Source: Gammaproteobacteria bacterium
GTDB lineage: Bacteria; Pseudomonadota; Gammaproteobacteria; S012-40
Assembly (NCBI GenBank): GCA_015491615.1
Contig: WFVN01000138.1
Span: 1 to 32,738 of the forward strand
Direction of reading: 5' to 3'
Length of the DNA: 32,738 bases
The notes under the pieces are model-generated. The model had not been told where the DNA came from and did no database searches. It saw only the letters and a list, made by a program, of their open reading frames with translations. This document shows positions 18,235 to 32,738 of this stretch, in pieces. The translations under genes and the position numbers were made by a program. Position 1 is the first letter of the stretch; each line of letters starts with the position of its first letter.

Positions 18235-18379
18235 AAGCGAAGACGACGGGGGCATGGGGCGGTTGGCTTGGATCGGGGGTTTGCGCTAACCTACGGCGGC
18301 ACGACAGAACGACGAAACCGCGTGCGAGGGGGGATCATACCGGGCCATGGCCAGGGGGGGCAAACGCAACGTCGAGAGG

Positions 18380-19156
18380 ATGTATCGGCACCTGCCGACA
18401 GCGGTGTTCGCCGTGCTCCTGGCGGCCCTGGCGGCCTTGCCCGGCTGGAGCGACACCCTCATCGGTGACCCGGTGGCAGGCGCCAACGACCCCATTCTCG
18501 GTTCCAAACACGACTTCACTGGGTTGAACCGCCGTGCCGGCGTGTTCGCCATGCCGGGAGTGGCCTTCTCCGACTACGGCAACCCCTGCGTCTACTGTCA
18601 CCTCCCTCCGGAGAAGGCCGAGGTGGATGAGACGAAGGAAGGGGCCATCCCCGACTGGAACCGTTTCTACCCCGCCACCGATGCCTACCGGCTCTACGAC
18701 AGCACTTACATGGACTCCAAGACGCGCACCCCCAGCCCCATCAGCCTGCTTTGCCTTTCCTGCCACGACGGCACCATGGGAGTGGACATGGTGGTCTTCC
18801 CGCCGACCGATTTCGACAGCGCCCAGGATGAGGCCCTGCACATGCGCATCCATGGCGCCGACGACGTCGTCTCCTGCGGCAAGTGCCACAACGGGCGCGT
18901 GGCGCACGACATCTCCATCAAGCACATCGGCACCGACCTGCGCAACGATCATCCCATTTCCATGCGCTATGCCGGTCTGTTGCGCGCGGACGAGGACTTC
19001 CGCCTCCCCGATACTCCCGAGGGTTTCAACAACGGTGTGCGCTTGTACGAAGGACGGGTCGAGTGCGCTTCCTGCCACAACGTCCACAACCCGGAGAAGG
19101 ACCTGCTCCTGCGAGCCGACTCGGACCTGCTCTGCCAGACATGTCACACCAAGTAG
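18380..19156 (+). CDS. Periplasmic pentaheme cytochrome c (cytochrome c3-like / doubled-CXXCH type)
   Basis: Signal peptide; CVYCH, CLSCH, CGKCH, CASCH and CQTCH; extra His motifs GSKHD, NDHPI and HNVH as likely distal ligands. Start 18380 or 18347. Confidence 0.9.
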   Translation: MYRHLPTAVFAVLLAALAALPGWSDTLIGDPVAGANDPILGSKHDFTGLNRRAGVFAMPGVAFSDYGNPCVYCHLPPEKAEVDETKEGAIPDWNRFYPATDAYRLYDSTYMDSKTRTPSPISLLCLSCHDGTMGVDMVVFPPTDFDSAQDEALHMRIHGADDVVSCGKCHNGRVAHDISIKHIGTDLRNDHPISMRYAGLLRADEDFRLPDTPEGFNNGVRLYEGRVECASCHNVHNPEKDLLLRADSDLLCQTCHTK

Positions 19157-19290
19157 CCCGCTTGGCAAGGGGCCACCACACAACGCCCGGAGCTCATCGG
19201 CAACCCGTGAACGGCTGGCTCGCCCCGACCCGATTTTGCCGCCTTTCCCCGTCGCACGACACCGAAGAGCCACCGAACGAAACGACTGCC

Positions 19291-20352
19291 GTGGCACGCC
19301 TGGTCGTTTTGTTCGTCGCCGTTCTTCTGAGCGCCTGCGCCTCACGCCCCTCGATACCGATTTCAGCGCCGCCCGTCTATCCGCCACCGCCATCCGAGCC
19401 CCGTTTCGTGTACGACGGCACCCTGCGCACCAGCAGCGATTTCATCCGCCCCACCTTCGGCGACCGCTTGCGCGCCTTCGCTACCGGTAGCCGCGAGACG
19501 CCTTTCGGTCTCGCCAAGCCCTTCGCGGTCGCGGTACGCGCGGGGCGCATCTACGTGAGCGACACCCAGCAGCGGGCGGTGCTGCTGTTCGATCTTTCCG
19601 GCCAGCGGGTGGTAGTCATCGGCGAGCGGGGGGCGGGCACGCTGGTGAAGCCCATGGGCGTGGCTCTCTCCCACGATGGCCAGCGTCTGTTCGTGGCCGA
19701 CGTCACCGCCCGCCGGATCCAGGTCTTCGACGCAGAAGGGAAACACTTGGCCACCCTGGGACGCGACGCCGGCATGCGCCGCCCGGTGGGGTTGGCTCTT
19801 TCCCCCGACGACGCCCGCCTGTATGTGGTGGACGTGGGGGGCGTGGACACGGACCGCCACCGGGTGTGGGTATTCGACACCCGCAGCGGCAAGCTGCTGT
19901 TCCATTTCGGCCGCCGCGGCACCGCCCTGGGCGAGTTCAACCTGCCCATCCACGCCGCCACCGGCCCCGACGGCACCCTCTACGTGGTGGACGGGGGCAA
20001 CTTCCGCGTCCAGGCCTTCGACCCGGACGGACGCCCCCTGTTCGCCTTCGGCGCCCCCGGCCGGCGCTCGGGGCAGTTCTCCCGCCCCAAAGGGATCGCC
20101 ACCGATGGCGAGGGGCGCATCTACGTGGTGGACGCGGCCTTCGGCAACGTGCAGATCTTCGATGCCCGCGGGCGCCTGCTGATGCACCTGGGCGACCGGG
20201 CCACCAGCGGCGGCCCGGGGCGCTTCATGCTCCCCTCGGGCTGCACGGTGGACGAGGCCGGACGCCTGTTCGTGGTGGATCAGTTCTTCCGCAAAATCGA
20301 CGTCTTCCGCCCCGCCGCCCAGCCCCCGTGGGAGCGCCTGCCACTACGCTAA
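19291..20352 (+). CDS. NHL-repeat six-bladed beta-propeller lipoprotein
   Basis: 3' part of track ORF 18883..20352. GTG start, lipobox LLSA-C, and repeated P.G.A....G.(I/L)YV.D..N.R(I/V)QVFD units. Confidence 0.87.
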   Translation: MARLVVLFVAVLLSACASRPSIPISAPPVYPPPPSEPRFVYDGTLRTSSDFIRPTFGDRLRAFATGSRETPFGLAKPFAVAVRAGRIYVSDTQQRAVLLFDLSGQRVVVIGERGAGTLVKPMGVALSHDGQRLFVADVTARRIQVFDAEGKHLATLGRDAGMRRPVGLALSPDDARLYVVDVGGVDTDRHRVWVFDTRSGKLLFHFGRRGTALGEFNLPIHAATGPDGTLYVVDGGNFRVQAFDPDGRPLFAFGAPGRRSGQFSRPKGIATDGEGRIYVVDAAFGNVQIFDARGRLLMHLGDRATSGGPGRFMLPSGCTVDEAGRLFVVDQFFRKIDVFRPAAQPPWERLPLR

Positions 20353-22803
20353 CCCGGGCGGGGAGAAACCCTCCTGCAGTTGCCTCTGAAACGCCTCGCC
20401 AGGCAGGGGTGGGCTGATGTAGTACCCCTGGATGGCGTCCACACCCATGGTTTTGAGCAATTCGGCGGCGCGCGCGTCCTCGACCCCTTCGGCGATCACC
20501 CGCAACCCCAGATCGTGGGCCATGTCGATGGTGGAGCGGACAATCACCCGGCTGTGCTCGTCCTGTACCAGGCCGACGATGAAGGAACGGTCGATCTTGA
20601 TCTCGTTCACCGGCATCTGCTTGAGATAGGAAAGGGAAGAGTAGCCGGTACCGAAATCGTCGATGGAGACGGTGAAACCACGTTGATTGAGGGCTTCGAG
20701 GATATGGCTGGCAGCGCGGACATCCTCCACCAGAGCCGTTTCGGTCACCTCCAGTTTGACGAAGCGAGGCGAGACACCGGCCGATTCCACCTGCCGCGCC
20801 ACATCCTCCGCCAGACTGGGACGTTGCAGATCGCGGGCGGAAAGGTTCAGCGCCAGACACAGACCATGGGAAAGAATGACCGGCGCGCATTCGGCCAGAA
20901 CCCGCTCCAACACCCAATCGGTGAGGGTGTGGATGAGACCGGTCTGTTCCGCCAGGGGAATGAACTCGGAAGGTTGCATGATGCCGTGTACCGGATGGTG
21001 CCAGCGCACCAGGGCCTCGCAGGCGGTGACCCGGGCCTGCTGGAAGGACCACACCGGCTGGTAGTGGAGCAACAGTTGTCCCTGACCGAGGGCCTCGCGC
21101 AGCTCTCCCATCACCGCCAACTGGCGGAGGTTGTGCTGGTCGCTCTCCGGGTCGTAGAGGGCATAACCCCGATTCTCCCGCTTGGCCATGTACATGGCCA
21201 CGTCGGCCCGCTGCAGGAGTACGCCGGCATCTCGCCCATGGTAGGGATACAGGGCGATGCCCATGCTACACCCTACCTGTAAGCGCTGGCCGTCGACGAC
21301 GAAAGGCTCCTCCAGGGCCTTCACCAGCTTGTTGGCGGTGTGCACCGCCTGACGCACGTCGGCTCCCGGCAGGAGGATGGCGAATTCGTCACCGCCCAGG
21401 CGAGCGACGGTGTCCGATTCGCGCAACAACAGGCGCAGGCGCTGGGCCACCTGCTGCAGGAGCTTGTCGCCCACCTGGTGGCCGAGGGTGTCGTTGACGA
21501 TCTTGAAGCGGTCTAGATCCATGAGACAGAGGGCAAAGCGACCCTTCTCCCGTTGCGCGGCACGCACGCACTGCTGCATGCGATCGAACAGGAGGGTGCG
21601 GTTGGGAAGATCCGTGAGAGCGTCGTGCAGGGCCTGGTAACGCAGCGCGGCCGTCTGCACCTTGCGACTGGTGATGTCGCGGGCCACGGCGATGTGATAA
21701 TCGGTGGAACCGAGACGGATACGACGCAGGGTCACCTCCATGGGAAAGACGGTACCGTTGCGACGGCGCCCGTACAGCTCATGCATCTCTTCTTCTTCGC
21801 CCTCGCCGCCCAGAAACAAACGACGCGCCGCTTCGCGATAAGGTTCGGGCACGAGCCGTTCCACCGGCTGCCCCACCAATTGCCCCGGCGGGTAACCGAA
21901 CACCCGTTCGCATGAGGCATTGGCGAGGCGCACCACCCCCTGCGGATCGACGAGGATGATGGCGTCGGCGACGTGGTCCATAACGGCGCGGGTACGGGCT
22001 TCGCTCACCCGCAGGGCCTCCTGCATCTGATTGAAGGCGACCGCCAACTCGCCAATCTCGTCCTTACGTTCGACGGGAATACGCACTTGGCGTCCGCCGC
22101 GGGCCACTTCGTCGATGGCCGCCCGCAGAATCCCCAAGGGGCGGATGACGTCGCGCCGCAGAGCCAGAAACAGAATCAACCCCAGGGCCAAAGCCAACGC
22201 CAGGGCGCCCACCCACAACTTGGTGCGCGTAGCCTGGATGCGCGCCTGCGTCTGGGCGGTGGAAACAGCGAGGTAAAAGACACCGCGTAGGGGCGCGTGA
22301 TCGTAACCATGGCAGGAAAAACAGGCGACATCGGCGCGAATGGGCGTCATCAGAGCGAGGACCCCGGGACGCGAGTCATCCAGCACCGTCTCACCACGCA
22401 GGGCCCGCTCCAACATGCCGGGAGAGACCAGATCTGGGTGACGGGCCGGACGTGGTTCCCGCTCGAACACTGGCCCGCCCAGATAGGCATTGACCTTTTC
22501 CACCGTGCGCAGATCGGTAAAGGCCTCGCTTCCGTCGCGGCGCAAGACTTCGATCTCCAGGATGCCGGCGACGCCGTGGAGCCGATCCAGCCATTCCCGC
22601 GCCAAAGTCCCGCTGCCGTTGAGCATGAGGGTCTTGAGGCTGGCCATGAGGGTCTGGGCGTGCACCTTGAGTTGCTCGGTATCGGCGCTGTGGATGGCGC
22701 GCGCCAGCTCCCGGTCCACCCACACGCCCACGCCCCCGAGGACGAGGAGGAGCACGCCGGCGAGAATGGCGGCGAGGCGCAGGCTGAGACTGTGCAGGTT
22801 CAT
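20344..22803 (-). CDS. Membrane diguanylate cyclase/phosphodiesterase: periplasmic CXXCH sensor-HAMP-PAS-GGDEF-EAL
   Basis: Two TMs flank a periplasmic domain with CFSCH; HAMP (DEIGELAVAFNQM); PAS; RESD I-site plus RLGGDEF; EAL with EALVRW, DDFGTGYSS, KIDRSF, EGVE and QGY. Confidence 0.93.
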   Translation of the reverse strand: MNLHSLSLRLAAILAGVLLLVLGGVGVWVDRELARAIHSADTEQLKVHAQTLMASLKTLMLNGSGTLAREWLDRLHGVAGILEIEVLRRDGSEAFTDLRTVEKVNAYLGGPVFEREPRPARHPDLVSPGMLERALRGETVLDDSRPGVLALMTPIRADVACFSCHGYDHAPLRGVFYLAVSTAQTQARIQATRTKLWVGALALALALGLILFLALRRDVIRPLGILRAAIDEVARGGRQVRIPVERKDEIGELAVAFNQMQEALRVSEARTRAVMDHVADAIILVDPQGVVRLANASCERVFGYPPGQLVGQPVERLVPEPYREAARRLFLGGEGEEEEMHELYGRRRNGTVFPMEVTLRRIRLGSTDYHIAVARDITSRKVQTAALRYQALHDALTDLPNRTLLFDRMQQCVRAAQREKGRFALCLMDLDRFKIVNDTLGHQVGDKLLQQVAQRLRLLLRESDTVARLGGDEFAILLPGADVRQAVHTANKLVKALEEPFVVDGQRLQVGCSMGIALYPYHGRDAGVLLQRADVAMYMAKRENRGYALYDPESDQHNLRQLAVMGELREALGQGQLLLHYQPVWSFQQARVTACEALVRWHHPVHGIMQPSEFIPLAEQTGLIHTLTDWVLERVLAECAPVILSHGLCLALNLSARDLQRPSLAEDVARQVESAGVSPRFVKLEVTETALVEDVRAASHILEALNQRGFTVSIDDFGTGYSSLSYLKQMPVNEIKIDRSFIVGLVQDEHSRVIVRSTIDMAHDLGLRVIAEGVEDARAAELLKTMGVDAIQGYYISPPLPGEAFQRQLQEGFSPPGLA

Positions 22804-22838
22804 GGGGCTCCGGTATGACGGAAGAGTGTCTACTTTTC

Positions 22839-22855
22839 AGCAGGTTCCGCGCCAA
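22839..22855 (-). promoter_or_regulatory. Putative sigma54 (-24/-12) promoter of the GGDEF/EAL gene
   Basis: Minus strand TTGGCGCGGAACCTGCT gives GG-N10-GC, close to the consensus TGGCACG-N4-TTGC, about 35 nt upstream of the ATG. Confidence 0.65.
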
Positions 22856-23028
22856 TCCTCCCTGACGGTCCTCGAAGCATTTAATCATCAGCCCGGCCGC
22901 GGGAAAAGGGCGAGATCCCTTCAGCGTCATACGAGCCTGGGGGAGCAATGTGATTCCAAGGTGAATGGCCCAGACCGGCATCTCATCGCCGTCTCCCGTT
23001 CGTCTCCGGCTTGGATCAAGAAGGAGCT

Positions 23029-24222
23029 TCAGGGGAGATGGAGACGGGTCACACCCCCGTAACTACCGATCCACAAGCTTCCGTCGGCGGCGCGCGACAT
23101 GGAAAACACGTTGTCGGCGAAGAGACCGTCCTTACGGGTGAGGACGACGAAGCCACGCCCGTCCTCGCGAAAGCGCGCGAGGCCGGCGCTGGTGCCGATC
23201 CACAGCGTGCCCTGGGAATCGATGTGAAGCATGAAGACATGGTTGGCCGGCAGACCGTCGCGGGTGGTGTAATTGGTCCAGCGCTGCCCGTCATAGCGCG
23301 CCAGACCACCACCCCAGGTACCTGCCCAGACGGTTCCATCGGCGGTCACCGCCAGGGAGACGATGTAGTTGGGATTGTAAGCAACCGTGACCCGCTCCAG
23401 CCCTTGCTCGTGTTTCTGTTGGGCATGGTGGCGCGAGGCGGCCCCAGGGTCGGATTTGAACTGGATGGCATCCTTGACCACCTCAAAGGGCGCTCCGACA
23501 CCTTCCTCGTGGGCCCAATGCTCCCAGCGACCCTCCTGATAACGGGCCACCCCACCCTCAGTGGCGAACCAGATGGCACCGTCGGGCCCCTTTTCCACCC
23601 CGTATACCCAGTCGTTGGGCAATCCCCCCTCGGTGTTGGCGACGTCGAAGGTCTCCCAGGCTCCCGGGTCACCCAAGCGAGCGCCACGTACCCGATTGGC
23701 GCCGGACCAAGTGGCGATCCACAGGTCGCCCCGGTCGTCCAACTGGGTATCGTACACGAACTGGTCGGCCAATCCGTGGGGGATGTTGTAGTTCGTCCAA
23801 CTGTCCTTTTCCGGATCGTATACCGACAAGCCACCGCCGTAAGTTCCCACCAGCAGAAGCCGGCCCAATTTACCAAGGTGGAAGACGCCGTTGGAAAGGA
23901 GGCTGCCACTGTCGATGTTGTAGAGACGATAATCGTCACGGCGGATATCGTAGCGGATGACCCCGCCGGAGGTGCCCACCCAAACGACATCGCCATCGGC
24001 GAGGATGGCCTTGACGTTGCGGTTGCCAACGCGGAAATGGCTGAAACGGGGCGGGCGACGGGCTCCTTGGTGTGGCTGGGCCTGGTCGACACCCGCTTCG
24101 GGGCCCCGGGCCTCCGGTGAAGTGGGACCCGTTTGCGCTTGACGCTGGCCCAACCAATACCCCCCTCCCGCCACGGCGACCAGGAGGGCTGCAACGAAAA
24201 AAAACCTGGGGCGGGAGGTCAT
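23029..24222 (-). CDS. Stand-alone Reg_prop (two-component regulator propeller) beta-propeller protein with N-terminal membrane anchor/signal
   Basis: Repeats such as GLPNDWVY..G..WFATEGGV, GLPANHVF..LWIGTSAGL and GLFADNVF..LWIGSYGG; no kinase or output domain. Confidence 0.85.
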   Translation of the reverse strand: MTSRPRFFFVAALLVAVAGGGYWLGQRQAQTGPTSPEARGPEAGVDQAQPHQGARRPPRFSHFRVGNRNVKAILADGDVVWVGTSGGVIRYDIRRDDYRLYNIDSGSLLSNGVFHLGKLGRLLLVGTYGGGLSVYDPEKDSWTNYNIPHGLADQFVYDTQLDDRGDLWIATWSGANRVRGARLGDPGAWETFDVANTEGGLPNDWVYGVEKGPDGAIWFATEGGVARYQEGRWEHWAHEEGVGAPFEVVKDAIQFKSDPGAASRHHAQQKHEQGLERVTVAYNPNYIVSLAVTADGTVWAGTWGGGLARYDGQRWTNYTTRDGLPANHVFMLHIDSQGTLWIGTSAGLARFREDGRGFVVLTRKDGLFADNVFSMSRAADGSLWIGSYGGVTRLHLP

Positions 24223-24284
24223 GGACGGGCACCCAATATGCAGACGCCCGGCATTCTACCATCCCCGGGGAGAGGGGGCAGCCG

Positions 24285-25316
24285 TCACCACCCGATGCGC
24301 GCCACCAAGCCATTGAGACCGGCCCAGACCCCACCGTCCTGGGTCACGGCGAGGGCATACACGTCCCGCTGGGGCAGACCTGACACCCCATGCCAACGAC
24401 CGTCCTTTCGGTAGGCCAGTCCCCCGTCGGTGCCGGCCCACAAGCGCCCGTCGCCATCTACCGCCAAAGCATAGACGATATCGCCCGGCAAACCGTCGGC
24501 ACGGGTCTCGTTGCGGAAACGGCGGCCATCGAAACGGGAGACGCCACCGCCCCATGTCCCTACCCACACATGGCCGTCGCCGTCCACGGCGAGGGAGAAG
24601 ACGTAGTTGGGATTGAAACTGGGACGACCATCCACGCGCACGTTCAGGTCGTGGCGATTGCGTGTGCCAAGGCCGGTGTTGTCGCTGAAGGGGCGACCGT
24701 CACGGTTGGGGGCCCCCAGGCCGTCGGCGTGGGTCCAGGTACGCCAGGAGCGACCGTCGAAGGCGTTGAGACCGCCCTCGGTACCCACCCAGAGGACACC
24801 GCGCGGATCCACGGCGAGGGCATACACCCATTCGTTGATCAGTTCCTCCAGATAGGTCTCGAAACGGTCTTCGCCACGGCGCCAGCGGTTGAGCCCGGCC
24901 CAGGTACCGATCCATACGTCGCCAGCGCGGTCTTCCGCGAAGCTGTACACCCAGTAGTCGGCCAGTCCGTGGAGTGGGAAATAGGTCTTCCAGCGACCCT
25001 CGGCATAGCGAGACACCCCGCCCCCATTGGTGCCCAACCATACCTCGCCGCGGCTGTCCACGAAGGCGGCGAAGACATACTCGTTGGCCAGGGCGTTGTC
25101 GCGGGTGAACACCCCCAGGCGCTCGCCCGTGCGCAAATCCACCTGCATGGCCCCCACGGAAGTCCCCACCCAGAGTTGCTGGCGAGCGGAGTCCACTGCC
25201 AAGGCCCGCACTACCACGCCCTGCCCCACTTGGAAGGATTCGCGCACGGCGAAACCCGCCGCCTGGACGACGGCACAAAACGAGACGGAGAAGAAAAGAA
25301 ACAGACGTGCAATCAC
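24285..25316 (-). CDS. Second stand-alone Reg_prop beta-propeller protein, secreted
   Basis: GTG start overlapping the cytochrome stop; signal peptide ending VQA/A; repeats LANEYVF..WLGTNGGG, LADYWVY..WIGTWAGL and LPGDIVY..WAGTDGGL. Confidence 0.85.
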   Translation of the reverse strand: MIARLFLFFSVSFCAVVQAAGFAVRESFQVGQGVVVRALAVDSARQQLWVGTSVGAMQVDLRTGERLGVFTRDNALANEYVFAAFVDSRGEVWLGTNGGGVSRYAEGRWKTYFPLHGLADYWVYSFAEDRAGDVWIGTWAGLNRWRRGEDRFETYLEELINEWVYALAVDPRGVLWVGTEGGLNAFDGRSWRTWTHADGLGAPNRDGRPFSDNTGLGTRNRHDLNVRVDGRPSFNPNYVFSLAVDGDGHVWVGTWGGGVSRFDGRRFRNETRADGLPGDIVYALAVDGDGRLWAGTDGGLAYRKDGRWHGVSGLPQRDVYALAVTQDGGVWAGLNGLVARIGW

Positions 25317-25609
25317 AGAAGACTGCGCAAATAGAGAACGACGTTCTCGATTTCCCGGTCGCTGAGGATGCCGGCGAACCCGGGCATCACCCCATTGCCC
25401 TGTCGGATCCGCTCGGCCAGGTCACGGTCGGTGGTGTTGAGGCGCTCACCGAGGGCAAAATTGGGCATGCCAGGCATCATCCCCTCCCCCGCCGGACCGT
25501 GACACCCCATGCAGTAACGATCGTACACCGTTTTTCCGGCAGCCACCGGGTCGTCGGCCCCAACGGCACCGGCGAAGGCAACGAAGAAGACCCAAACGGC
25601 TATCCTCAT
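25313..25609 (-). CDS. Small monoheme class I cytochrome c (c6/c553-like)
   Basis: 3' end of track ORF 25313..26338. MRIAVWVFFVAFAGAVGA signal, CMGCH, and GNGVMPGF (axial Met); 98 aa. Confidence 0.9.
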   Translation of the reverse strand: MRIAVWVFFVAFAGAVGADDPVAAGKTVYDRYCMGCHGPAGEGMMPGMPNFALGERLNTTDRDLAERIRQGNGVMPGFAGILSDREIENVVLYLRSLL

Positions 25610-25619
25610 GGGCACGGCT

Positions 25620-26438
25620 TCAGTCGATTCCCAACCGCAAACGGCGCTCGGTGAACCAGTCGTCGCCGATACCGATGTTGGGTTTGACATCCTGTACCTG
25701 AAAGAAAGAGGTATGGAAGGTCTGAACGTTCTGCACGAAGACCCGATCCCAAGCCCAGGCCTTCCCCACCTGTTGCCAGGTGAGGAGCTGACGCTTGAGG
25801 AACAAACCCTTACGGTCGTAATAATCCACCCGCGTCTTGACACACTGTTCCCAGTTTTCGGCCTTCTTGAACCAGTTGACCTTCTTGCTGTAGATGGAAT
25901 CGGGCTCTTTGGGCACGCTCTCCACGACGAAGAACTCTTCGCCTTTGCGGTCCCGTTCCAAACGCAGGAAACGGTGCTCGTCGTCGTCCAACCGGCGCAG
26001 GCTGATGTCTCCGTAGGTGAGATCGGATCCCAGGAAGCTGTCCCCCAGGTCGCGCACCGATACACGCCGGATCTTGCGCAGCACCGGCAGGTAGATCCAT
26101 TGATCGGCATTCTTCCCCGTTTCCGGCAGATAGGCCCAGCGCATGAAAGCGGCACCACGGGCATCCGGTGGATAGAGGGTGAAGAGAACCATCTTCTCCT
26201 GGATACCGTCCTTGCCCTTGTAGTCCTTCCACAGACGCAGGTAAACGGTGAGCTTTTCGTTGCCGGCCCGGTCCTTGAGGCGAATGGTAAGGCGCGATTG
26301 TTGATCGTCACCTGGGTGTTTGTAATCACAGCGAGCAACGATATCGCGGCCGTTCAGCGATATGCCAGCAGAGCTCTCCCCCTCCACTGCGAAGGCCGGG
26401 AGGGAAAGGAGCGCTGCGAGCAAAATCAGCCGTTTCAT
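25620..26438 (-). CDS. LolA-like 'outer membrane lipoprotein-sorting' family protein
   Basis: Signal peptide; F..P.D.RG..F, DQWIYLPVLRKIRRV, SFLGSDLTYGD, YSKKVNW, DYYDRKG.FLK and C-terminal FTERRL. Confidence 0.85.
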   Translation of the reverse strand: MKRLILLAALLSLPAFAVEGESSAGISLNGRDIVARCDYKHPGDDQQSRLTIRLKDRAGNEKLTVYLRLWKDYKGKDGIQEKMVLFTLYPPDARGAAFMRWAYLPETGKNADQWIYLPVLRKIRRVSVRDLGDSFLGSDLTYGDISLRRLDDDEHRFLRLERDRKGEEFFVVESVPKEPDSIYSKKVNWFKKAENWEQCVKTRVDYYDRKGLFLKRQLLTWQQVGKAWAWDRVFVQNVQTFHTSFFQVQDVKPNIGIGDDWFTERRLRLGID

Positions 26439-27469
26439 GTTGTCGCGCCCGGTTTCACCGCCTGGATGAGAGTGAAGGGGCTGGGCTCGGGGAGGGGTCG
26501 GTAGGCGATGTCGGTGAACCCGACGTCACGCACCATGTCGGCCACTTCCTTCACCGAGTAAGCCCGTCCGGCAGGGGTGTGGACCAACTGATTGAGCCCG
26601 ATGAGCACCGGGAGCAACGGCCCCGACTTCTCCTCATTGAGGAACTGTTCCTGCACCAGCAGCACCCCACCCGGATCCAGGGCCTCGTAAGATTTGCGGA
26701 TGATCTCGCGAATCACGTCCGGCCCTTCCTGGTTGATCATGGAGGACAGGAGCACCACGTCGTAGCCGCTGCCGAAAGGGTCTTCCAGGTAGTTGCCTTC
26801 CTTGGTGCTCACCCGCTCACCGGCGCGGTAATCGGCGATGATGTCGCGGGTGACCTCCAAGGTCTGGGGCAGGTCCATGACGTCGGCGGTCATGCCGAGA
26901 TTCCTCTCCGTCATGATGATAGAGAAGATGCCAGGTCCACCACCCACGTCCAACATCCGCTTTTTACCGGGCAGGGGGACTTCCTCGGCAAGGAGCTGTG
27001 CCTGCGGGATCCCCCGATAGAGCATACCCATGATGTACGTGCGGGTCTCCTCGGGGCCGTGCTCGTGTTGTTTCTCCACCACCGGGCGCCCTTCGATCAC
27101 CGCTTTCTTCAGACCGGTCCAGGCCTCCACCCAGGATTCGAACATGCTGACGATACCGCCCTGATAACGGGGACTGCCCCTCACCAGGAAGGTCTCCGCC
27201 AAGGGAGTGTTGGTGAAACACTCACCCTCCTTGCGCAGGAAGCCCTGACATACCGAGGCTATGAGGATCATCTCCAGGCCACGCGCATCGGCGCCTGTCT
27301 TCTCGGCCAGTTCTTCGGCCGTGGCCGGCCCTTCATGTAGCAGAGTGAACACGTCCAGGGCGTTGGCCACGTGGAATGCGAACGAGGGCCAATAAGCGGA
27401 AGCGGCTTCCATGACCGCCATAGGATTGAGGCCATCGTCTTTGGAGTCGTTCTGCCAATCTTTGTCCAT
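26435..27469 (-). CDS. SAM-dependent class II (Methyltransf_2, dimerising) methyltransferase
   Basis: N-terminal winged-helix dimerisation region (LDVFTLL..GPATAEELA), LDVGGGPG, MDLP, EGNY and YEALDPGG; its stop overlaps the next ATG. Confidence 0.88.
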   Translation of the reverse strand: MDKDWQNDSKDDGLNPMAVMEAASAYWPSFAFHVANALDVFTLLHEGPATAEELAEKTGADARGLEMILIASVCQGFLRKEGECFTNTPLAETFLVRGSPRYQGGIVSMFESWVEAWTGLKKAVIEGRPVVEKQHEHGPEETRTYIMGMLYRGIPQAQLLAEEVPLPGKKRMLDVGGGPGIFSIIMTERNLGMTADVMDLPQTLEVTRDIIADYRAGERVSTKEGNYLEDPFGSGYDVVLLSSMINQEGPDVIREIIRKSYEALDPGGVLLVQEQFLNEEKSGPLLPVLIGLNQLVHTPAGRAYSVKEVADMVRDVGFTDIAYRPLPEPSPFTLIQAVKPGATT

Positions 27470-27558
27470 CGAAGTCCCTTGCTTGATATGAACGCCGCAC
27501 CGGCCGACGGATTCCTCCGACCGGATAACGGGAATCTTAAACGCGAAGCGGAAGGAGA

Positions 27559-27597
27559 TAAAGGAAAGGGGGCGCCGAAGCGCCCCCTCCCTTTTCT
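27559..27597 (-). terminator. Rho-independent terminator after the secreted-protein gene
   Basis: Minus strand GGGGGCGC-TTCG-GCGCCCCC (C-UUCG-G tetraloop) followed by TTTCCTTT. The + strand also has a T-tract, so it may be bidirectional. Confidence 0.85.
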
Positions 27598-27621
27598 TCG
27601 GCTAGACAGCCTTGCCGTTGA

Positions 27622-28674
27622 TCACGGGCAAACGTCGGTCACCCCATCGGCACCCACGCCCGTGGGGCTGGGATTGCCATCCGTGCCCACCAAGCAGGGA
27701 TTGGGACCGAAGTTGCCGTCCCAGTTCCAGGGTCCGGCCTGGAACAGACTGAAGTAGGCGATGGGATTGGGCGTCTGGGGCGAGCCGACCACCTCGTAAG
27801 CCTGGTAGCCGAACATGCTGCCCATCATGCCGCCGGTCATACCGCCGCCACCACCCGTACCACCGGTACCAACGGTGGAAGTCAAGTCGATGGACTGACC
27901 GATCCAGGTGGCCTTGATGTTGTCACCCGGATTGTAGGTGAGGGAGTCCCCCGTGGGCAGGCTGGCGGTACCGGAAGCGTTCATCCGGGTACCGGCGAGC
28001 TGACGCAGGGTGAACACCTGCAGATCGGTGGGGGCACCCACCGCGCCTTGCTGCAGACCCACCACCTGGTCCAACTCCATGGTGAAGCCGTCGGGCTGGC
28101 CGTCTCCGTCGCTGTCGACGTCCGCGGCATAGAAGAAGTTGCTCACGAAGTCATCGGCATAGCCGGCGCCACCGGCATTCTCCAGAATTTGGTCGATGAC
28201 GATGGTGTCGGCATTGGGATCCAGCCCCCAACCGGTGGCGAGGCTGGTGTTGGCAGCGAACACGGTGCCGTCGGGCGTGGTCTGGTTGATGGTCTGCTTA
28301 CCGATGATGCCCTGCGGGTTGGCGCCGCCGCCACCACCGAAGTTGACGGTCATAAGAACCACCGTCTCGTCGGCGAAGCTGGGCGCCGTGAGGGTGGGGT
28401 CGACCGTGGCATTCTGGTCGGTGACGATGGTGCGGATGTAGGCATCGGTGGCACCCGCCTGCTGCATGCTCAATTGCAGGAAGCCGTTACCCTCGGCGAT
28501 GACGCCGCAGGTCCACCCCGCCGGACAGTTGTAGCTGATGGCCCCGTTATTGGCGGTCCACTGATCGAAGGTCTTGACCTCGATGGGGACTGCGGCGGAA
28601 CTCGCCCCGGCATACATCGCCGCCAACGCCCCCGCGAGCGCAGTCATTTTGATGAACTCCTTCCCCGTACGCAT
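27622..28674 (-). CDS. Hypothetical secreted acidic Gly/Thr-rich protein (350 aa), family unrecognised
   Basis: GAGGAGG RBS before ATG 28674; signal peptide ending ASSA/A; strongly biased codons (GGT/GGC, ACC, AAC); flanked by its own promoter and terminator. Confidence 0.85.
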   Translation of the reverse strand: MRTGKEFIKMTALAGALAAMYAGASSAAVPIEVKTFDQWTANNGAISYNCPAGWTCGVIAEGNGFLQLSMQQAGATDAYIRTIVTDQNATVDPTLTAPSFADETVVLMTVNFGGGGGANPQGIIGKQTINQTTPDGTVFAANTSLATGWGLDPNADTIVIDQILENAGGAGYADDFVSNFFYAADVDSDGDGQPDGFTMELDQVVGLQQGAVGAPTDLQVFTLRQLAGTRMNASGTASLPTGDSLTYNPGDNIKATWIGQSIDLTSTVGTGGTGGGGGMTGGMMGSMFGYQAYEVVGSPQTPNPIAYFSLFQAGPWNWDGNFGPNPCLVGTDGNPSPTGVGADGVTDVCP

Positions 28675-28806
28675 AGCAACCTCCTCGTTCTTGGTTGGCT
28701 TTCGGTTGACCCATCCCGCCATCCTTTGGCGGGACCTTGGAACGAACTGCACGTCCTGTTCCAGGACCAACGCCCCTTCCTGGAGCGCTGCGCAGTCTTA
28801 CCTCTC

Positions 28807-28835
28807 AAGCTAGCAATGACCTCGTTCGAAGTCAA
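28807..28835 (-). promoter_or_regulatory. sigma70 promoter of the secreted-protein gene
   Basis: Minus strand TTGACT-N17-TAGCTT with extended -10 TG and an upstream A-tract. Confidence 0.72.
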
Positions 28836-28932
28836 GTTTTTGGCTGCCTTATTCTCCATGGAGTTTTCCGTTTTCAGGCACCAAAAACACAAGCTTTTGA
28901 TTGAAAGATGTTTTTGCACCTCCTGAACGAGT

Positions 28933-29568
28933 CTAGCGGTTCAAATAGCCGTAGAACACGCGGTTGAGGTAGCGCAAGTTCCTTTGCCCGCGGCCCACGT
29001 CCAGGCGTGTCGCCGAGGCGTAGTCCAGGGTGAGCCAGCGATAGCGCGCCAGGGGCAGGCCCAGGGTACGCGCCAGATACACCCGCAGCGGGCCCACGTG
29101 ACTCACCACGGCGATGCGCTCGCCCGGATGGCGCGCGAGGATGGCCTCGATGGCCGGGCACACCCGTTCGGCCAGTTGGTGGACAGTCTCGCCATCCGCC
29201 GGGGCGTAGCCGGCCTGGTCGGCCTTCCAGGCGCGGAATCCGTCGGGGTCGCCAGCCTGGATCTGGTCGAAGGTGAGCCCTTCCCAGACACCGAAGCGGC
29301 GCTCCACCAGTTCCGGCACCAGGATCACCTCGCAGCCGGCGGTAGCGGCCACGGCCTCGGCGGTCTGCCGCGCCCGGGCCACCGGGCTGGCATAGACCGC
29401 CGCCAGCCCTTCGCCGGCCAGTCCCTGCGCCAGGGCCTCGGCCTGCCTGCGGCCGTTTTCGTTGAGGGGCGGATCTTCCCGCTCGTCGCAGTAGATGCGG
29501 TCGAGAGGAAAGTCCGTCTCTCCGTGACGGCACAGGTACAGGTCGGTGCTCGGTTCCTTTTCTCTCAT
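28933..29568 (-). CDS. Histidine phosphatase superfamily protein (PGAM/CobC-like)
   Basis: LYLCRHGET, YASPVARARQTA, LVERRFGVWEG, GET and VVSHVG. Confidence 0.9.
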   Translation of the reverse strand: MREKEPSTDLYLCRHGETDFPLDRIYCDEREDPPLNENGRRQAEALAQGLAGEGLAAVYASPVARARQTAEAVAATAGCEVILVPELVERRFGVWEGLTFDQIQAGDPDGFRAWKADQAGYAPADGETVHQLAERVCPAIEAILARHPGERIAVVSHVGPLRVYLARTLGLPLARYRWLTLDYASATRLDVGRGQRNLRYLNRVFYGYLNR

Positions 29569-29643
29569 CGCGGTCCTCTCGTCCTCCCACGGGCCATCCC
29601 GGAGGAGGCTTCGCTTTGGCTATCGGCCAATTACATCACAGTT

Positions 29644-30327
29644 TTAGGGTTTTGTGGCGTGCCAACTCTCGGGAAGAATGAAGGCCCGGATGCGCGTGGC
29701 ATCGGGGCTGAGACCCAGCGCCTCGGCGAGGGCGGCGAAGGGGGCCGTATCGCCCTGGACGAGGGAGTGGCTGGCGATCTCGCGCCACCAGGCGACACCG
29801 GCGCACAGGGCCTGCAGGCGCCGCAGGTAGGCTTCGGCCCAGTCCCGCCATTGGGCTTCGCTGAGGCCGTGCTGGGCCATGAAGGGAGTGCGCTGGCAGG
29901 AGCGGATGACATCGTCCACGGGGCGTTCGACGATCACCCAGCGGGCCTGCGGGAAGGCCTGCGCCCACAGGGGCCACAGGAGGGTGAGCTTGGCGTCCTT
30001 GAACAGCCAGGGACGGCTGCCATCGTAGCCTTCGTCCCGCAGGATGCAGTGGACGGTCTCGCGCAGGTTGTCCACCGGCAGGAGTTCGTCGGGGGCAGGC
30101 AGGCGGCGCACGCCCAAGGGGTCCATGCCGAGGGCCCGGAGAATGCCTTTGTCGACCCCTTCGCGCAGGGCGACGTTCTCGAAAAAGCCGCGGGGATTGG
30201 GGGGGCCGCCGGGGACGGTACGACCCACCCAGGCGCCGCTCTCGGCCAACAGACCGGCCACCAGAGAAGTGCCCGAACGGGGCAGGCCGGTGACGAGGAT
30301 GGGACGGTCCCAGTGGTCGGACGTCAT
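29644..30327 (-). CDS. PAPS-dependent sulfotransferase-like protein
   Basis: 5'-PSB loop ILVTGLPRSGTS, NPRGFFEN, W.FKD and 3'-PB-like IVERPVDDVIRS; ATGA overlap with the lipoate ligase stop. Confidence 0.82.
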   Translation of the reverse strand: MTSDHWDRPILVTGLPRSGTSLVAGLLAESGAWVGRTVPGGPPNPRGFFENVALREGVDKGILRALGMDPLGVRRLPAPDELLPVDNLRETVHCILRDEGYDGSRPWLFKDAKLTLLWPLWAQAFPQARWVIVERPVDDVIRSCQRTPFMAQHGLSEAQWRDWAEAYLRRLQALCAGVAWWREIASHSLVQGDTAPFAALAEALGLSPDATRIRAFILPESWHATKP

Positions 30328-31397
30328 TCGCGGTGCACGGCGTTGAGGATGGCGGTGACCACGTCTTCGGGTTCCACGCCGGGAATCTGTAGCCCCAGTT
30401 CCCGGTAGGCGCGGGCCACCGCGGCGAGCAGAGGCTCACGTTCCAGGGGCAAGCCGCGCAGGCGCTCGTCGAGGCGCAGGACGCCGTTCTCCGGCCAGCA
30501 GGTGAAGTCGCCGCTCACCAGGAGGTCGGCGATGCGACCGTCCTTGACCAGGAGCTGCACCCGCAGGAGCCCGCCGGGGGCCTTGTGGGCGGCCTCGGTG
30601 AGGTGGGTGTCGGCGGCAATCTTGACCCCCATCTCGACGAATTTGCGTCCCATTTGATAGGTCCATTCGGGGTCGGCCAGTTCCCGTTCCGCCCGTTCGA
30701 TGGCGGCCAGTTCGTGCTCGCCGGGTTCGTCCAGGACCGGCTCGACCCCGAGGACGGCGGCCACCTGGCACAGGAACTCCGCCTGCACCGCCGCGCGCGG
30801 GGGGGCTTCCCCCAGTTCCTTGCGCAGGGTGGTCATGTAGTCGTCCAGGCCCTGACGGAGCTTGTCGCGGAATTTCTCCGAGGGCACGCGCAGGCAGCGG
30901 GCCATGGTCTCGGTGTCGAAGTCGAACAGGAAGCTGCCCACCATGACCACCGCCTCGCCGATGTGGGCGGCGCCGGTGCCGCCGATCTTGCGCCCGTGCA
31001 CATGGATGTCGTTGATAGGGCGGAAGCGTGCGTCCACCCCCAAGGCCTGGTAGGTGCGTGCCACCGGCTCGATGAAGCGGGGGTAGATCTCCAGCACCTG
31101 TCCGGGCACCAAGTGACGGGGGAAGATGAAGTGGAAGAAGAGCTGGTTGCTGTCGAGGAGGACGGCGCCGCCTCCCACGTGGCGGCGGATCACCGGCAGG
31201 CCGTGTTGCCGACACCAGGCCTCGTCCACTTCCAGGGCGATCTCCTGGTGCAGGCCCACGCAGACGTAAGGGGCGTCGGGGGAGACGAGAGTGAGCACGG
31301 GGTCGTCGTCCCGCCCCAACGCCTCGGCCACGCCGTGATAGACGGCCTGGGAGCGCAGGGGCGAGACGGTACCGAAGTCGAGGACGCGCAGGCGCAT
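30324..31397 (-). CDS. Lipoate-protein ligase A family protein (catalytic plus C-terminal domain)
   Basis: RRHVGGGAV, NDIHVHGRKIGG (catalytic Lys), MTTL and C-terminal KAPGGLL...SGDF. Confidence 0.88.
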   Translation of the reverse strand: MRLRVLDFGTVSPLRSQAVYHGVAEALGRDDDPVLTLVSPDAPYVCVGLHQEIALEVDEAWCRQHGLPVIRRHVGGGAVLLDSNQLFFHFIFPRHLVPGQVLEIYPRFIEPVARTYQALGVDARFRPINDIHVHGRKIGGTGAAHIGEAVVMVGSFLFDFDTETMARCLRVPSEKFRDKLRQGLDDYMTTLRKELGEAPPRAAVQAEFLCQVAAVLGVEPVLDEPGEHELAAIERAERELADPEWTYQMGRKFVEMGVKIAADTHLTEAAHKAPGGLLRVQLLVKDGRIADLLVSGDFTCWPENGVLRLDERLRGLPLEREPLLAAVARAYRELGLQIPGVEPEDVVTAILNAVHRE

Positions 31398-32624
31398 TCA
31401 GACGATTCCCGGGATGAAGCGGTAGCGGACGCGGCGCATGTACCAGCGGTATTCGGGATACTGGCGCAGGTGGCGTTCCTCGGTCAAACAGCGGGCCACG
31501 TAGAGCGCGCTCCAGCCGAGCATGCCGAACAGCCAGGGCCAGGACCAGAAGGCGCCGTACACCCCCGCCTGGAGCCACCAGAAAGTGAGTTTGCAGGTGG
31601 TGGCGGGGTGGCGTACGAGGCCGTAGGGGCCGCGCCATTGGAGGCGCTTGAAGGTGATGTTGGCGCCGGAGGGCCCAAGGGAGAGGTCGCTGTAAATGAG
31701 GGCGGCGAGGAGTGCAGTGAGCACCACCTGGAAGGCGAGAACGGCGCCGGCGTCGGGAAGCAGGAGGGTCTGTGGGGCGGCGGTGCCCACGTTGGGGCCG
31801 AAGGGGAAGATGAGGCCGGTGACCTGGTTCATGGGCGCGTAGCAGGCCAGACACACCAACCAGCCGGAGAGGGTGGTGTCGATGGAGCGGCTGCGGTTTT
31901 CCATCCAGCGGGATTCCAGGCCGTAGGCGGCGGAGGCGGCGATGGCGTCGGCCGCCCACAGGAGGCTGGAGAGCCAGGCCAGGGCAACCAGATCGAAGCC
32001 ACCGCCCCACTGCCCCGCCAGGCGTACCGCCTGGTCCAGGTTGACCCCCACCTGTCCCACCATGACGGGGATGAAGTAGGCACGCGAGAGGAGGTTCAAC
32101 AGGACCTTGCGGTTGCCCCAATTGCGCCAGGCGCGCCGGCGCAGGCGATACCCGGGCCACAGGCTGCGCAGCAGTTGCCACAGGCGCACGGCGGGGTCGT
32201 GATAGTCCTCCACCGGGCTGGCGCGCAGACGCAGGGTGAGGAGGAAATAGGGCAGGCCCAAGGGCAGGTAGAGATCCCACAGGGCCCGCAGGAAGGCGGT
32301 GGTGTGTTCCAGCCCCCGGTAGTAGGGGTGGTGGGCGAAGAAGGCCCGGGCCAGCCACAGGAGGGCGCCCCAGATCAGGTAACGCGCGAGGGCGCGCGGG
32401 AGCAGGTGCGACCAGGGCCGGGCGTCGATCCGGTAGTGGCCGAGTCCCCGCCCCTGGCGCCAGGCGTTCATGATCCCCCAGAGGGCGGCGAGGATCAGGG
32501 GCGGCCAGTGGAAGTGTTCGCCGATGCCGCCTTGCCGTGCCGCCCAGAGATAGGCCCCCGTCACCACGGCGAGGGCGGCGGCGACGTAGGCGTGCGGCGA
32601 GAGGTTGAAACTGCGCGGATCCAC
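31398..32624 (-). CDS. Polytopic membrane protein with C-terminal ICMT/PEMT-like methyltransferase domain
   Basis: Multiple TM segments; GPYGLVRHP and ARCLTEERHL...EY..Y...VRYRFIPG at the C-terminus. GTG start is uncertain; the stop abuts the lipoate ligase ATG. Confidence 0.78.
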   Translation of the reverse strand: MDPRSFNLSPHAYVAAALAVVTGAYLWAARQGGIGEHFHWPPLILAALWGIMNAWRQGRGLGHYRIDARPWSHLLPRALARYLIWGALLWLARAFFAHHPYYRGLEHTTAFLRALWDLYLPLGLPYFLLTLRLRASPVEDYHDPAVRLWQLLRSLWPGYRLRRRAWRNWGNRKVLLNLLSRAYFIPVMVGQVGVNLDQAVRLAGQWGGGFDLVALAWLSSLLWAADAIAASAAYGLESRWMENRSRSIDTTLSGWLVCLACYAPMNQVTGLIFPFGPNVGTAAPQTLLLPDAGAVLAFQVVLTALLAALIYSDLSLGPSGANITFKRLQWRGPYGLVRHPATTCKLTFWWLQAGVYGAFWSWPWLFGMLGWSALYVARCLTEERHLRQYPEYRWYMRRVRYRFIPGIV

Positions 32625-32738
32625 GGAGAGCGCAGGGGCAAGATCCGGGCCGGAAGTGCGAACGAAGAGCCTCGATCGGGTGACTCAGGCACAGGAGGGG
32701 TCTCGCCCCATGGTAACGGTCACGGACGACGTAGGGCC

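Follow-up and report, generated by a model that had tools for sequence, protein, structure and literature searches.

The window analysed here is contig WFVN01000138.1 over its whole length of 32,738 nt, from a gammaproteobacterial metagenome-assembled genome (MAG), referred to below as G000. On its minus strand, at 27622-28674, lies an open reading frame (ORF) for a protein that is termed X in the following, and the locus raises the question of what this protein does and with which of its neighbours it acts. By sequence comparison X is the founder of a family without known relatives. Across ∼ten gammaproteobacterial families it co-occurs with, and its gene adjoins, an orthologue of the same LolA-like protein. 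We tentatively favour the reading that X is an abundant, non-enzymatic extracytoplasmic partner of a LolA-like/DUF1302/HAE3 hydrophobe-transport pathway, probably a cargo-binding or coat protein at its periplasm-to-surface end.

X is predicted to be exported and belongs to an unannotated family

The following two features define the protein.

27622-28674, minus strand: coding sequence (CDS) of X, a 350-aa precursor plus stop, mature chain 323 aa; founder of an unannotated family
28594-28674, minus strand: Sec-type signal peptide, residues 1-27, cleavage between ASSA and AV read by eye

The ATG at 28674 was preferred over the TTG start of a longer listed ORF (from 28770) because of its ribosome-binding site (RBS) and the alignment of orthologue N-termini. 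The signal peptide as read by eye is MRTGKEFIKMTALAGALAAMYAGASSA, followed by AVP; A27 and P30 are nearly invariant, and all 28 of the 28 orthologues start with a basic n-region, an Ala/Gly/Leu h-region and a small-residue c-region. The mature chain contains 51 Gly, 35 Thr, 31 Ala, 25 Asp, 23 Val, 20 Pro, 20 Asn and 19 Gln, with 3 Lys, 3 Arg, 4 Cys and no His, and has a pI of ∼4.05. The initial annotation had described a secreted, acidic, His-free protein rich in Gly, Thr, Asp, Asn and Gln, and these counts bear it out. The two Cys pairs that it had pointed to are likewise present, at residues 50/56 (CPAGWTC) and 327/349 (C...DVCP).

No Pfam or NCBIfam match was obtained for X, for 12 other members of the family (longer or atypical forms) or for two orthologues, and the 12 contained no fused domains. 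A sequence profile search of the PDB with X returned noise (E 0.45 and 0.87), the best ESM Atlas score for X (0.79) was under the useful range, and PADLOC gave nothing. Ten relatives of X were found by a word-indexed search of 5.8 billion proteins, while full phmmer against 1.84 billion representatives yielded 175 homologues at E ≤ 1e-3, 94 at 1e-10 and 13 at 1e-30. In an 88-sequence alignment C50 and C56 are invariant; over the family, G122, G148, W39, W257, W318, F180, F221 and P326 join them as invariant or nearly so. A conserved run of Gln residues (Q67, Q127, Q162, Q203, Q219 and Q260) falls on alternate strands. The second Cys pair is a subfamily trait, four Cys being present in 41 of 121 members. 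Conservation falls on Cys, Gly, Gln, Trp and Phe, and no conserved His, Ser, Lys or Asp catalytic set was found in the family alignment. The sequence features support an exported, non-enzymatic-looking protein.

X co-occurs with a LolA-like gene and a transport cassette

The gene that accompanies X most widely in our comparison of genomes is the following.

25620-26438, minus strand: LolA_like protein, secreted (PF17131, weak DUF1329); conserved partner of X

X was found in 16 of 16 genomes of the order to which the window belongs (one family, 12 genera, with 1-10 matches each), in 21 of the 401 genomes sampled evenly over the class, representing ∼ten families, and in none of 300 other sampled genomes of the phylum. 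An orthologue of the LolA-like protein (at least 49% identity) was present in 22 of the 401: all 21 genomes with X, and one genome without it (G411, an assembly of 470 contigs). Four further genomes of the 401 gave LolA-like matches at 31-37% only. Of the 20 other genomes with X, 18 have a copy of it no more than 7 kb from the LolA-like gene on a single contig; the remaining two are fragmented assemblies in which the genes are split over contigs. The window protein matches PF17131 at E 3e-38 and DUF1329, partially, at E 1e-08, and the same holds for the LolA-like proteins of loci L040, L043, L048 and L053.

Gene neighbourhoods were compared by tblastn of the window proteins against 14 orthologue loci in the order and 18 in other families of the class. 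Two of these 18 loci held weaker, wrong copies of X; in those genomes the copy adjacent to the LolA-like gene was seen from the coordinates. Of the 14 order loci, 12 have the LolA-like gene near X, as do 13 of the 18 outside.

In genomes outside the order, four genes come after the LolA-like gene; they encode a regulator, a DUF1302 protein, an MMPL pump and a small barrel. The regulator, of ∼145 aa, combines a ribbon-helix-helix (RHH) with a CxxC...CxxC zinc ribbon, as read from the translation, and has no Pfam match. The DUF1302 protein has ∼500 aa, the MMPL/sterol-sensing pump of the resistance-nodulation-division (RND) type ∼830 aa, and the small protein ∼300 aa with a barrel-type C-terminus, ...INIYY. 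DUF1302 and MMPL genes both follow in 9 of the 13 outside loci with a LolA-like gene near X, and DUF1302 alone stands at the edge of one more. PF06980 (DUF1302) was detected in 10 loci outside the order and on contig C177 of G000, and proteins of 816-860 aa with MMPL, Sterol-sensing and Patched matches in 8 outside loci (L040, L041, L045-L050). In L043 the pump ORF was called at 524 aa, and an extra fragment at 2739-3464 also matches the pump of G000. The other half of the cassette was located in G000 at C177:4161-9840 (L073), beside ccm genes and separate from the window. It comprises genes for an RHH and zinc-ribbon protein (∼126 aa, no Pfam match), a DUF1302 protein of 583 aa, an MMPL protein of 906 aa, and a 305-aa orthologue of the ...INIYY proteins; the gene for a 924-aa tetratricopeptide repeat (TPR) protein comes next.

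Related cassettes have been described. AmeABCD of Castellaniella defragrans includes the DUF1302 protein AmeA, the LolA-superfamily protein AmeB and the HAE3 pump AmeD, and serves monoterpene export or tolerance (PMC6394551). A cofit cluster of four genes (DUF1302/DUF1329/BNR/RND) has been proposed to export an envelope component (bioRxiv 10.1101/072470), and esterase-like roles have also been suggested for such clusters (bioRxiv 10.1101/2020.07.04.188060). G000 encodes GspL of the type II secretion system, as do 5 of 5 further X genomes that were checked, which means that a secretion route exists.

Composition, expression signals and divergence

The composition of X is extreme for its genome. 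Of 1553 crude ORF calls in the MAG, the X precursor ranks lowest in K+R+H fraction, and among 1033 proteins of at least 250 aa only three are His-free, namely X, flagellin and FliD, the latter two checked by Pfam. The composition is therefore not due to chance, and it resembles that of the extracellular filament proteins of this genome. Low basic content extends over the family, with a median K+R+H of 4.8% and 34 of 121 members free of His. The second-lowest K+R+H fraction in the MAG belongs to a 340-aa protein without Pfam match (G000:C84:1824-2846, L072), which is another candidate exported or surface protein.

The signals around the gene are listed below.

28807-28835, minus strand: candidate promoter TTGACT-17-TAGCTT, read by eye, 8/12 matches, weak -10
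28675-28800, minus strand: structured 5' leader of ∼125 nt, 90% identity over 123 nt to the same-genus genome G015 (locus L024)
28680-28686, minus strand: Shine-Dalgarno (SD) sequence GAGGAGG, 5-nt spacer to the ATG
27564-27591, minus strand: intrinsic terminator 3' of X, 12-bp stem (9 GC pairs), TTCG loop, T-rich tail

The GAGGAGG RBS and the gene's own terminator, both named in the initial annotation, were found, 5 nt before the ATG and at 27591-27564, respectively. The sequence GAGGAG(G/A)TTGCT-ATG recurs in several further genera of the order. An SD match of at least 5 nt precedes X in 16 of 28 loci, as against 7 of 24 for the LolA-like gene, and the same proportions (16/28 versus 7/24) were counted for a terminator-like hairpin within 160 nt after the gene. 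The near-consensus promoter that had been claimed was not confirmed: a sigma-70 scan of 27300-29100 gave no promoter-like sites, and the best candidate by eye (TTGACT at 28835-28830, a 17-nt spacer and TAGCTT at 28812-28807, with the -35 hexamer conserved in G015) agrees with the consensus at 8 of 12 positions and scores under the threshold.

Within the genus the leader is better conserved than the CDS, at 90% (123 nt) versus 75-80%, the latter being an estimate by eye from the list of invariant columns and not a count (the mean column identity given by the tool was 87%). It has a minimum free energy of -58 kcal/mol (z -3.45), with two or three stable hairpins, and was undetectable by sequence in other genera. 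Rfam returned no match at gathering score in the whole window and sub-threshold noise around the X gene. A riboswitch in the leader, for cyclic di-GMP (c-di-GMP) or another ligand, was considered and dropped, as there was no Rfam match and leader conservation is confined to the genus. From these signals, the gene is predicted to be a strongly translated unit that is insulated by a terminator from the genes downstream, an architecture that recurs in orthologues, and the RBS, terminator and leader fit a protein made in excess over its neighbours. In codon adaptation, with 13 genes of the ribosomal-protein operon as reference, X stood at the 76th percentile; the index is not a measure of expression here, because the reference genes themselves score at about the genome median. 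Sequencing runs matching window 23000-32700 comprised 11 DNA runs from 5 studies, with shares of at least 0.91 in 4 runs of one study, and no RNA run was among those listed. The DNA of the window occurs in hydrothermal-vent metagenomes. In Table S5 of Ca. Tenderia electrophaga (PMC5371394), which was searched by locus tag and product name, without sequences, no orthologue of X was located.

X diverges quickly. Its identity to the window protein is 28-38% within the order and 25-33% outside, compared with 56-64% and 50-60% for the LolA-like protein and 70-73% and 62-70% for the O-methyltransferase encoded between the two. X thus evolves two to three times faster than its neighbours. The family is also prone to local duplication: double-length tandem forms make up ∼18 of 150 listed homologues, and fused double-domain forms have ∼670 aa. 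Tandem arrays were seen at G014:C58:1548-6830 (four to five partial matches in a row), G196:C1:93785-96032, G305:C105:10338-12378 and G126:C42:29345-31410, and a fused double-domain ORF of 722 aa at G005:C82:9085-11070.

Taken together, the composition that X shares among long His-free proteins with flagellin and FliD, the monocistronic design with a strong RBS and terminator, and the fast divergence with several paralogues per genome and tandem or fused copies could describe a stand-alone, abundant, self-assembling surface protein (S-layer, matrix or fibre) for which the adjacency to the LolA-like gene would be merely inherited gene order. The Asp-rich loop of X, which presumably resembles the loops of Ca-dependent surface proteins, points the same way, but it is not conserved. 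The near-perfect phyletic match and the adjacency with one LolA-like orthologue in ∼ten families exceed what drift of gene order would be expected to leave. No anchoring or lattice domain was found by Pfam in X or in 12 relatives, which is a weak argument, Gram-negative S-layer proteins being often without known domains of this kind. We regard a free-standing surface polymer as rather unlikely.

Predicted structure of X

AlphaFold2, run with the 88-sequence alignment, gave an all-beta meander for X with a predicted local distance difference test score (pLDDT) of 88 and a predicted template modelling score (pTM) of 0.84. DSSP assigned 17 strand elements to the model, ∼11 of them of at least 8 residues. 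The low-confidence parts were two Gly-rich loops only, the Gly/Met tract among them having a pLDDT of ∼53. The fold search proposed in the initial annotation returned no confident match to an enzyme or porin fold with either Foldseek or VIA-align. Foldseek against the PDB gave no match at E ≤ 1e-3, and its best rows were BamA, OccK and OmpF at E ≥ 0.05 and a TM-score of ∼0.2.

VIA-align matched X to outer-membrane barrels only, with Z 8-10.5, ∼190-225 residues aligned and a root-mean-square deviation (rmsd) of ∼6-15 Å. The matches, in order of improving fit, were as follows.

OmpG: rmsd 15.4 Å
Occ/OprD porins: rmsd ∼12 Å
Maltoporin: rmsd 10.3 Å; the best Z, 10.5, also at rmsd 10.3 Å
FimD usher: rmsd 8.9 Å
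LptD: rmsd 7.4 Å
SlpA barrel: rmsd 6.1 Å, 223 residues aligned

The poorly fitting barrels (rmsd 10-15 Å) are 14-18-stranded, by general knowledge of their strand numbers. As the fit improves with barrel width, the model suggests that X is a large, open and gently curved sheet and not a closed barrel.

The two faces of the strands were compared over the family by Kyte-Doolittle (KD) means, which were mostly ∼+0.7 to +1.8 versus -0.2 to -1.2; three long strands had almost no contrast between faces, the apolar side falling to ∼0. The benchmark for true barrels in this comparison comes from general knowledge. Loop lengths in the model show no alternation of short and long. X terminates in ...DVCP, and over 121 members the C-terminal residue is Phe, Trp or Tyr in 29 and Pro in 46.

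These data bear on the possibility that X is an outer-membrane beta-barrel, which BAM would insert and which might serve hydrophobic solutes as a porin-like channel. The top structural matches are outer-membrane barrels throughout (VIA-align Z 8-10.5; BamA, OccK and OmpF in Foldseek), the model is an all-beta meander of long strands, the richness in Gly, Thr, Asn and Asp is porin-like, and an envelope transport cassette is encoded nearby. The matches are poor, however, since Foldseek gives E ≥ 0.05 with a TM-score of ∼0.2 and the VIA-align rmsd of 10-15 Å drops only for very large barrels, which fits an open sheet. X ends in Cys-Pro and aromatic ends are confined to 29 of 121 members, whereas the small barrel of the cassette ends in ...INIYY; the apolar strand face mostly reaches only +0.7 to +1.8 on the KD scale; short and long loops do not alternate; there are two predicted disulfides; and the double-domain forms do not model as one larger barrel. 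A barrel is improbable on this evidence.

That two X domains form one giant barrel was considered separately and dropped: the double-domain protein P0017 was modelled as two domains, with pLDDT 71 and pTM 0.70, and its best VIA-align matches (Z ≤ 9.5) were mostly to a single domain. JlpA (3uau_B) was among these matches, with Z 6.0, rmsd 6.3 Å and 156 residues aligned, which is in the stated noise range of the tool. Complex prediction for mature X with the mature LolA-like protein, both entered as alignments, gave interface scores (ipSAE) of 0.00 and 0.00, which speak neither for nor against binding.

The Asp-rich loop and the Gly/Met tract

The DVDSDGDGQPD loop and the Gly/Met tract are present in X as the initial annotation had described them. 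The Asp-rich loop DVDSDGDGQPDG begins at residue 185, its motif spanning 185-196, and the Gly/Met tract GTGGTGGGGGMTGGMMGSM begins at residue 269, with 5 Met in 13 residues (280-292). The loop is kept in P0003-P0006, absent or different in P0007-P0011 and in the paralogues, and deleted in P0007. Of 121 members, 14 have the tract. It is missing in the near-identical orthologue P0005 and the close orthologue P0006; two paralogues of X in G000 have even longer GGM-type tracts.

A periplasmic metal binder, with Ca2+ at the DxDxDG-type loop or Cu(I) at the Met-rich tract, would accord with both motifs, with the longer tracts of the G000 paralogues and with the occurrence of the DNA in vent metagenomes, where metal stress is plausible. 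Against it, the loop is limited to the closest orthologues and the tract to the 14 members, both motifs lie in loops (the Met tract in a low-confidence part of the model), and there is no conserved His, Cys or Met ligand set besides the structural Cys pair. As neither motif is a feature of the family, metal binding as the core function, which had also been suggested, found no support in the comparison and is very improbable.

Genomic neighbourhood of X

The window reads on the minus strand, in order: membrane protein, LplA-like ligase, sulfotransferase, His phosphatase, X, O-methyltransferase, LolA_like protein, cytochrome c, two Reg_prop propellers and a HAMP-PAS-GGDEF-EAL protein. Those around X and the LolA-like gene are as follows.

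29644-32624, minus strand: genus-specific trio outside the conserved module, consisting of a membrane protein (31398-32624), an LplA-like ligase (30324-31397) and a sulfotransferase (29644-30327)
28933-29568, minus strand: histidine phosphatase, cytoplasmic, CobC-like; upstream of X, separate unit
26435-27469, minus strand: class-2 O-methyltransferase (Dimerisation + Methyltransf_2), cytoplasmic; facultative module member
25313-25639, minus strand: monohaem cytochrome c, overlapping with its start the last 20 nt (25620-25639) of the LolA-like gene; order-specific operon continuation
23029-25316, minus strand: two secreted Reg_prop beta-propellers (24285-25316 and 23029-24222)
20344-22803, minus strand: HAMP-PAS-GGDEF-EAL c-di-GMP enzyme; terminates the order-specific cluster

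The trio was found near X in 1 of 14 loci in the order (L024, from the same genus) and in none of the 18 outside. Its stops and starts touch or overlap. The membrane protein is a multi-pass protein of 408 aa with a weakly isoprenylcysteine-methyltransferase-like C-terminus, and the enzymes are an LplA-like lipoate-protein ligase with its C-terminal domain and a Sulfotransfer_3 protein. That X is lipoylated, sulfated, methylated or dephosphorylated by these flanking enzymes, as the initial annotation had considered, is suggested by the adjacency and shared orientation of the genes, in the window as in the same-genus genome, yet scarcely credible given that the trio accompanies X in 1 of 32 other loci, that the LplA-like ligase, sulfotransferase, His phosphatase and O-methyltransferase have no signal peptide in their translated N-termini while X would be exported unfolded via Sec, that none of the three mature Lys of X is conserved even in close orthologues, and that the O-methyltransferase belongs to the small-molecule class 2 family and has been lost repeatedly. 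A tempting misreading, X as the modified protein substrate of the adjacent lipoate ligase and sulfotransferase, is thereby corrected. The view of a secreted, structural-type and separately expressed protein was right in spirit and mistaken about which neighbours matter. The expected linkage of homologues to this cluster holds in part for the orthologues, which occur with the His phosphatase, the O-methyltransferase and the LolA-like gene, and fails for the paralogues, which are unlinked.

The His phosphatase precedes X in 13 of the 14 order loci and in 11 of the 18 others. It is CobC-like by NCBIfam, below the cut-off, and in L040 it is preceded by CbiM/CbiQ/ABC genes; by sequence it looks like the tail of an upstream cobalt/cobalamin unit. 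In the genome of Ca. Tenderia electrophaga the sole ribazole phosphatase sits in the cobalamin operon, and ccm genes precede the cytochrome cluster (PMC5371394). Next to X, the O-methyltransferase is full-length in 4 of the 14 order loci and in 5 of the 18 others. Its best NCBIfam matches were BchU/CrtF-like, far under the cut-off. Remnants of its C-terminus (41 and 25 aa by tblastn) lie between X and the LolA-like gene at L027:3054-3173 and L041:7762-7836, which suggests that the gene is ancestral and was then lost repeatedly.

The genes for cytochrome c, propellers and GGDEF-EAL protein were near X in 8 of 14 loci in the order and in none of the 18 outside. Over 16327-25639 the window contains a pentahaem cbb3-type cytochrome, an ORF of 352 aa, an NHL lipoprotein, the GGDEF-EAL protein, the two Reg_prop proteins and the monohaem cytochrome. 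For Tenderiales and neighbouring orders, the accessible part of the study by Eddie et al. describes a 'secondary c-type cytochrome cluster' of two periplasmic sensors, a c-di-GMP phosphodiesterase, a CcoP-like cytochrome, an NHL protein and a pentahaem cytochrome, and in that part X goes unmentioned (bioRxiv 10.1101/2022.05.06.490989). The region 16327-25639 fits this cluster by description and is here fused to the X/LolA-like module. The 352-aa ORF (18335-19393, minus strand) belongs to no Pfam family and lies between the pentahaem cytochrome and the NHL gene. Since the long upstream extension of the NHL ORF, which is on the opposite strand, runs into the 5' part of the 352-aa ORF, one of the two starts has been called wrongly.

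Proposed role of X

The reading of X as an extracytoplasmic partner of the LolA-like pathway can be stated as a mechanism. X would be exported by Sec, probably in excess, and would work outside the cytoplasm with the neighbouring LolA-like periplasmic carrier. This carrier would tie it to an Ame-type pathway consisting of the DUF1302 barrel, the HAE3/MMPL RND pump, the small second barrel and the RHH regulator, with the cytoplasmic O-methyltransferase as an optional member. Folded as a large, open, curved meander sheet and held by the invariant N-terminal disulfide hairpin, X may receive, hold or present the hydrophobic molecule that pump, carrier and barrel transport; the Asp-rich and Gly/Met loops would be lineage-specific decorations. 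In the order of the window the cassette is split. X, the O-methyltransferase and the LolA-like gene were retained together and joined to the cytochrome c/Reg_prop sensor/c-di-GMP cluster, and the genes for regulator, DUF1302, MMPL and small barrel stand on another contig.

Several points weigh against this reading. The counts of co-occurrence overstate the independence of the cases, because the genomes are related and represent ∼ten families. Paralogues of X, two in G000 and others elsewhere, are located away from any LolA_like gene, from which it follows that the fold can work without such a neighbour. The cytoplasmic His phosphatase is nearly as syntenic with X as the LolA-like gene. The adjacency of X and the LolA-like gene could be inherited synteny, as a terminator of its own ends X in the window and neither a DUF1302 nor an MMPL gene was found after the LolA-like gene in the 4 further order loci checked. 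Alignment of the X family by hhalign with the LolA-like, DUF1302 and small-barrel families gave probabilities of 2.7%, 0.5% and 0.7%, respectively. No BNR/propeller family was detected among the cassette ORFs in the 12 loci scanned, and because an AmeC-like BNR/Ycf48 propeller is thus absent, the cassette is a variant of the Ame type and not a typical member. The open sheet is read from a single trend in the models, that of rmsd against the size of the matched barrel, and the expression level, location, ligand and binding of X are predictions from sequence.

The module may have a wider setting. RuBisCO was present in 20 of the 20 other X genomes, as against 168 of the 401 sampled genomes overall; its large subunit was not found in G000, which is 87% complete, and this is probably a gap in the assembly. 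X could be a carrier or coat protein with a new fold that defines a five-to-seven-gene subtype of HAE3-RND systems (X, O-methyltransferase, LolA-like carrier, RHH regulator, DUF1302 barrel, MMPL pump and small barrel), limited to RuBisCO-bearing lithoautotrophic Gammaproteobacteria of mineral, vent and electrode habitats. Such a subtype might carry, between the cell and solid substrates, a hydrophobic molecule that is possibly methylated and either redox-active or sulfur-based, its X/LolA-like half being wired in this order to the cytochrome c/propeller-sensor/c-di-GMP cluster. As a whole this extended proposal is quite unlikely. Wiring of this kind, if real, would link the module with the sensing of surfaces and with the uptake of extracellular electrons.

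DUF1302/LolA-like/HAE3-RND cassettes are widespread and have phenotypes on hydrophobic substrates. A conserved, fast-evolving and probably abundant extra component such as X offers a handle on the system, and the ligand of native X could reveal the cargo. The autotrophs that have X are kin of electrode- and mineral-oxidising bacteria and are either uncultured or little studied.

Comparison with known systems

The X loci resemble AmeABCD and the DUF1302/DUF1329/BNR/RND (COG1033, HAE3) cassettes of Shewanella, Pseudomonas and Kangiella in having a DUF1302 protein, a secreted LolA-superfamily protein and an MMPL pump encoded in one orientation. They differ from AmeABCD in lacking the AmeC/BNR propeller, in adding X, the RHH/zinc-ribbon regulator, the small barrel and sometimes the O-methyltransferase, and in a LolA-like protein of ∼270 instead of ∼450 aa. 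X itself has no homologue among the components of the described cassettes, and the splitting of the cassette in the order of the window is a further difference.

The gene of X recalls those of pilin- or flagellin-type major subunits. As in the usual operon logic of surface appendages, it comes first, has a strong RBS and is separated by a terminator from the accessory genes, and its product is acidic, His-free and poor in Lys and Arg. X has no homology to these subunits and no genes for an usher, chaperone or secretion ATPase nearby, and a compact globular sheet is predicted for it instead of a pilin or flagellin fold.

With outer-membrane beta-barrels (OccK/OprD, maltoporin, FimD, LptD, SlpA), which provide its best structural matches, X shares a long-stranded antiparallel meander. 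It departs from them in the rmsd of 6-15 Å and TM-score of ∼0.2 of these matches, in the missing aromatic C-terminus, in the weak amphipathicity of its strands and in its putative disulfides.

The half-barrel binders of hydrophobes, that is, the LolA/LolB superfamily and the 'catcher's mitt' of JlpA, are matched weakly by X, which has no profile relation to the LolA-like protein, is larger and lacks a helical lid. What X would have in common with them is an exported sheet with one face more apolar than the other, in the context of hydrophobe transport.

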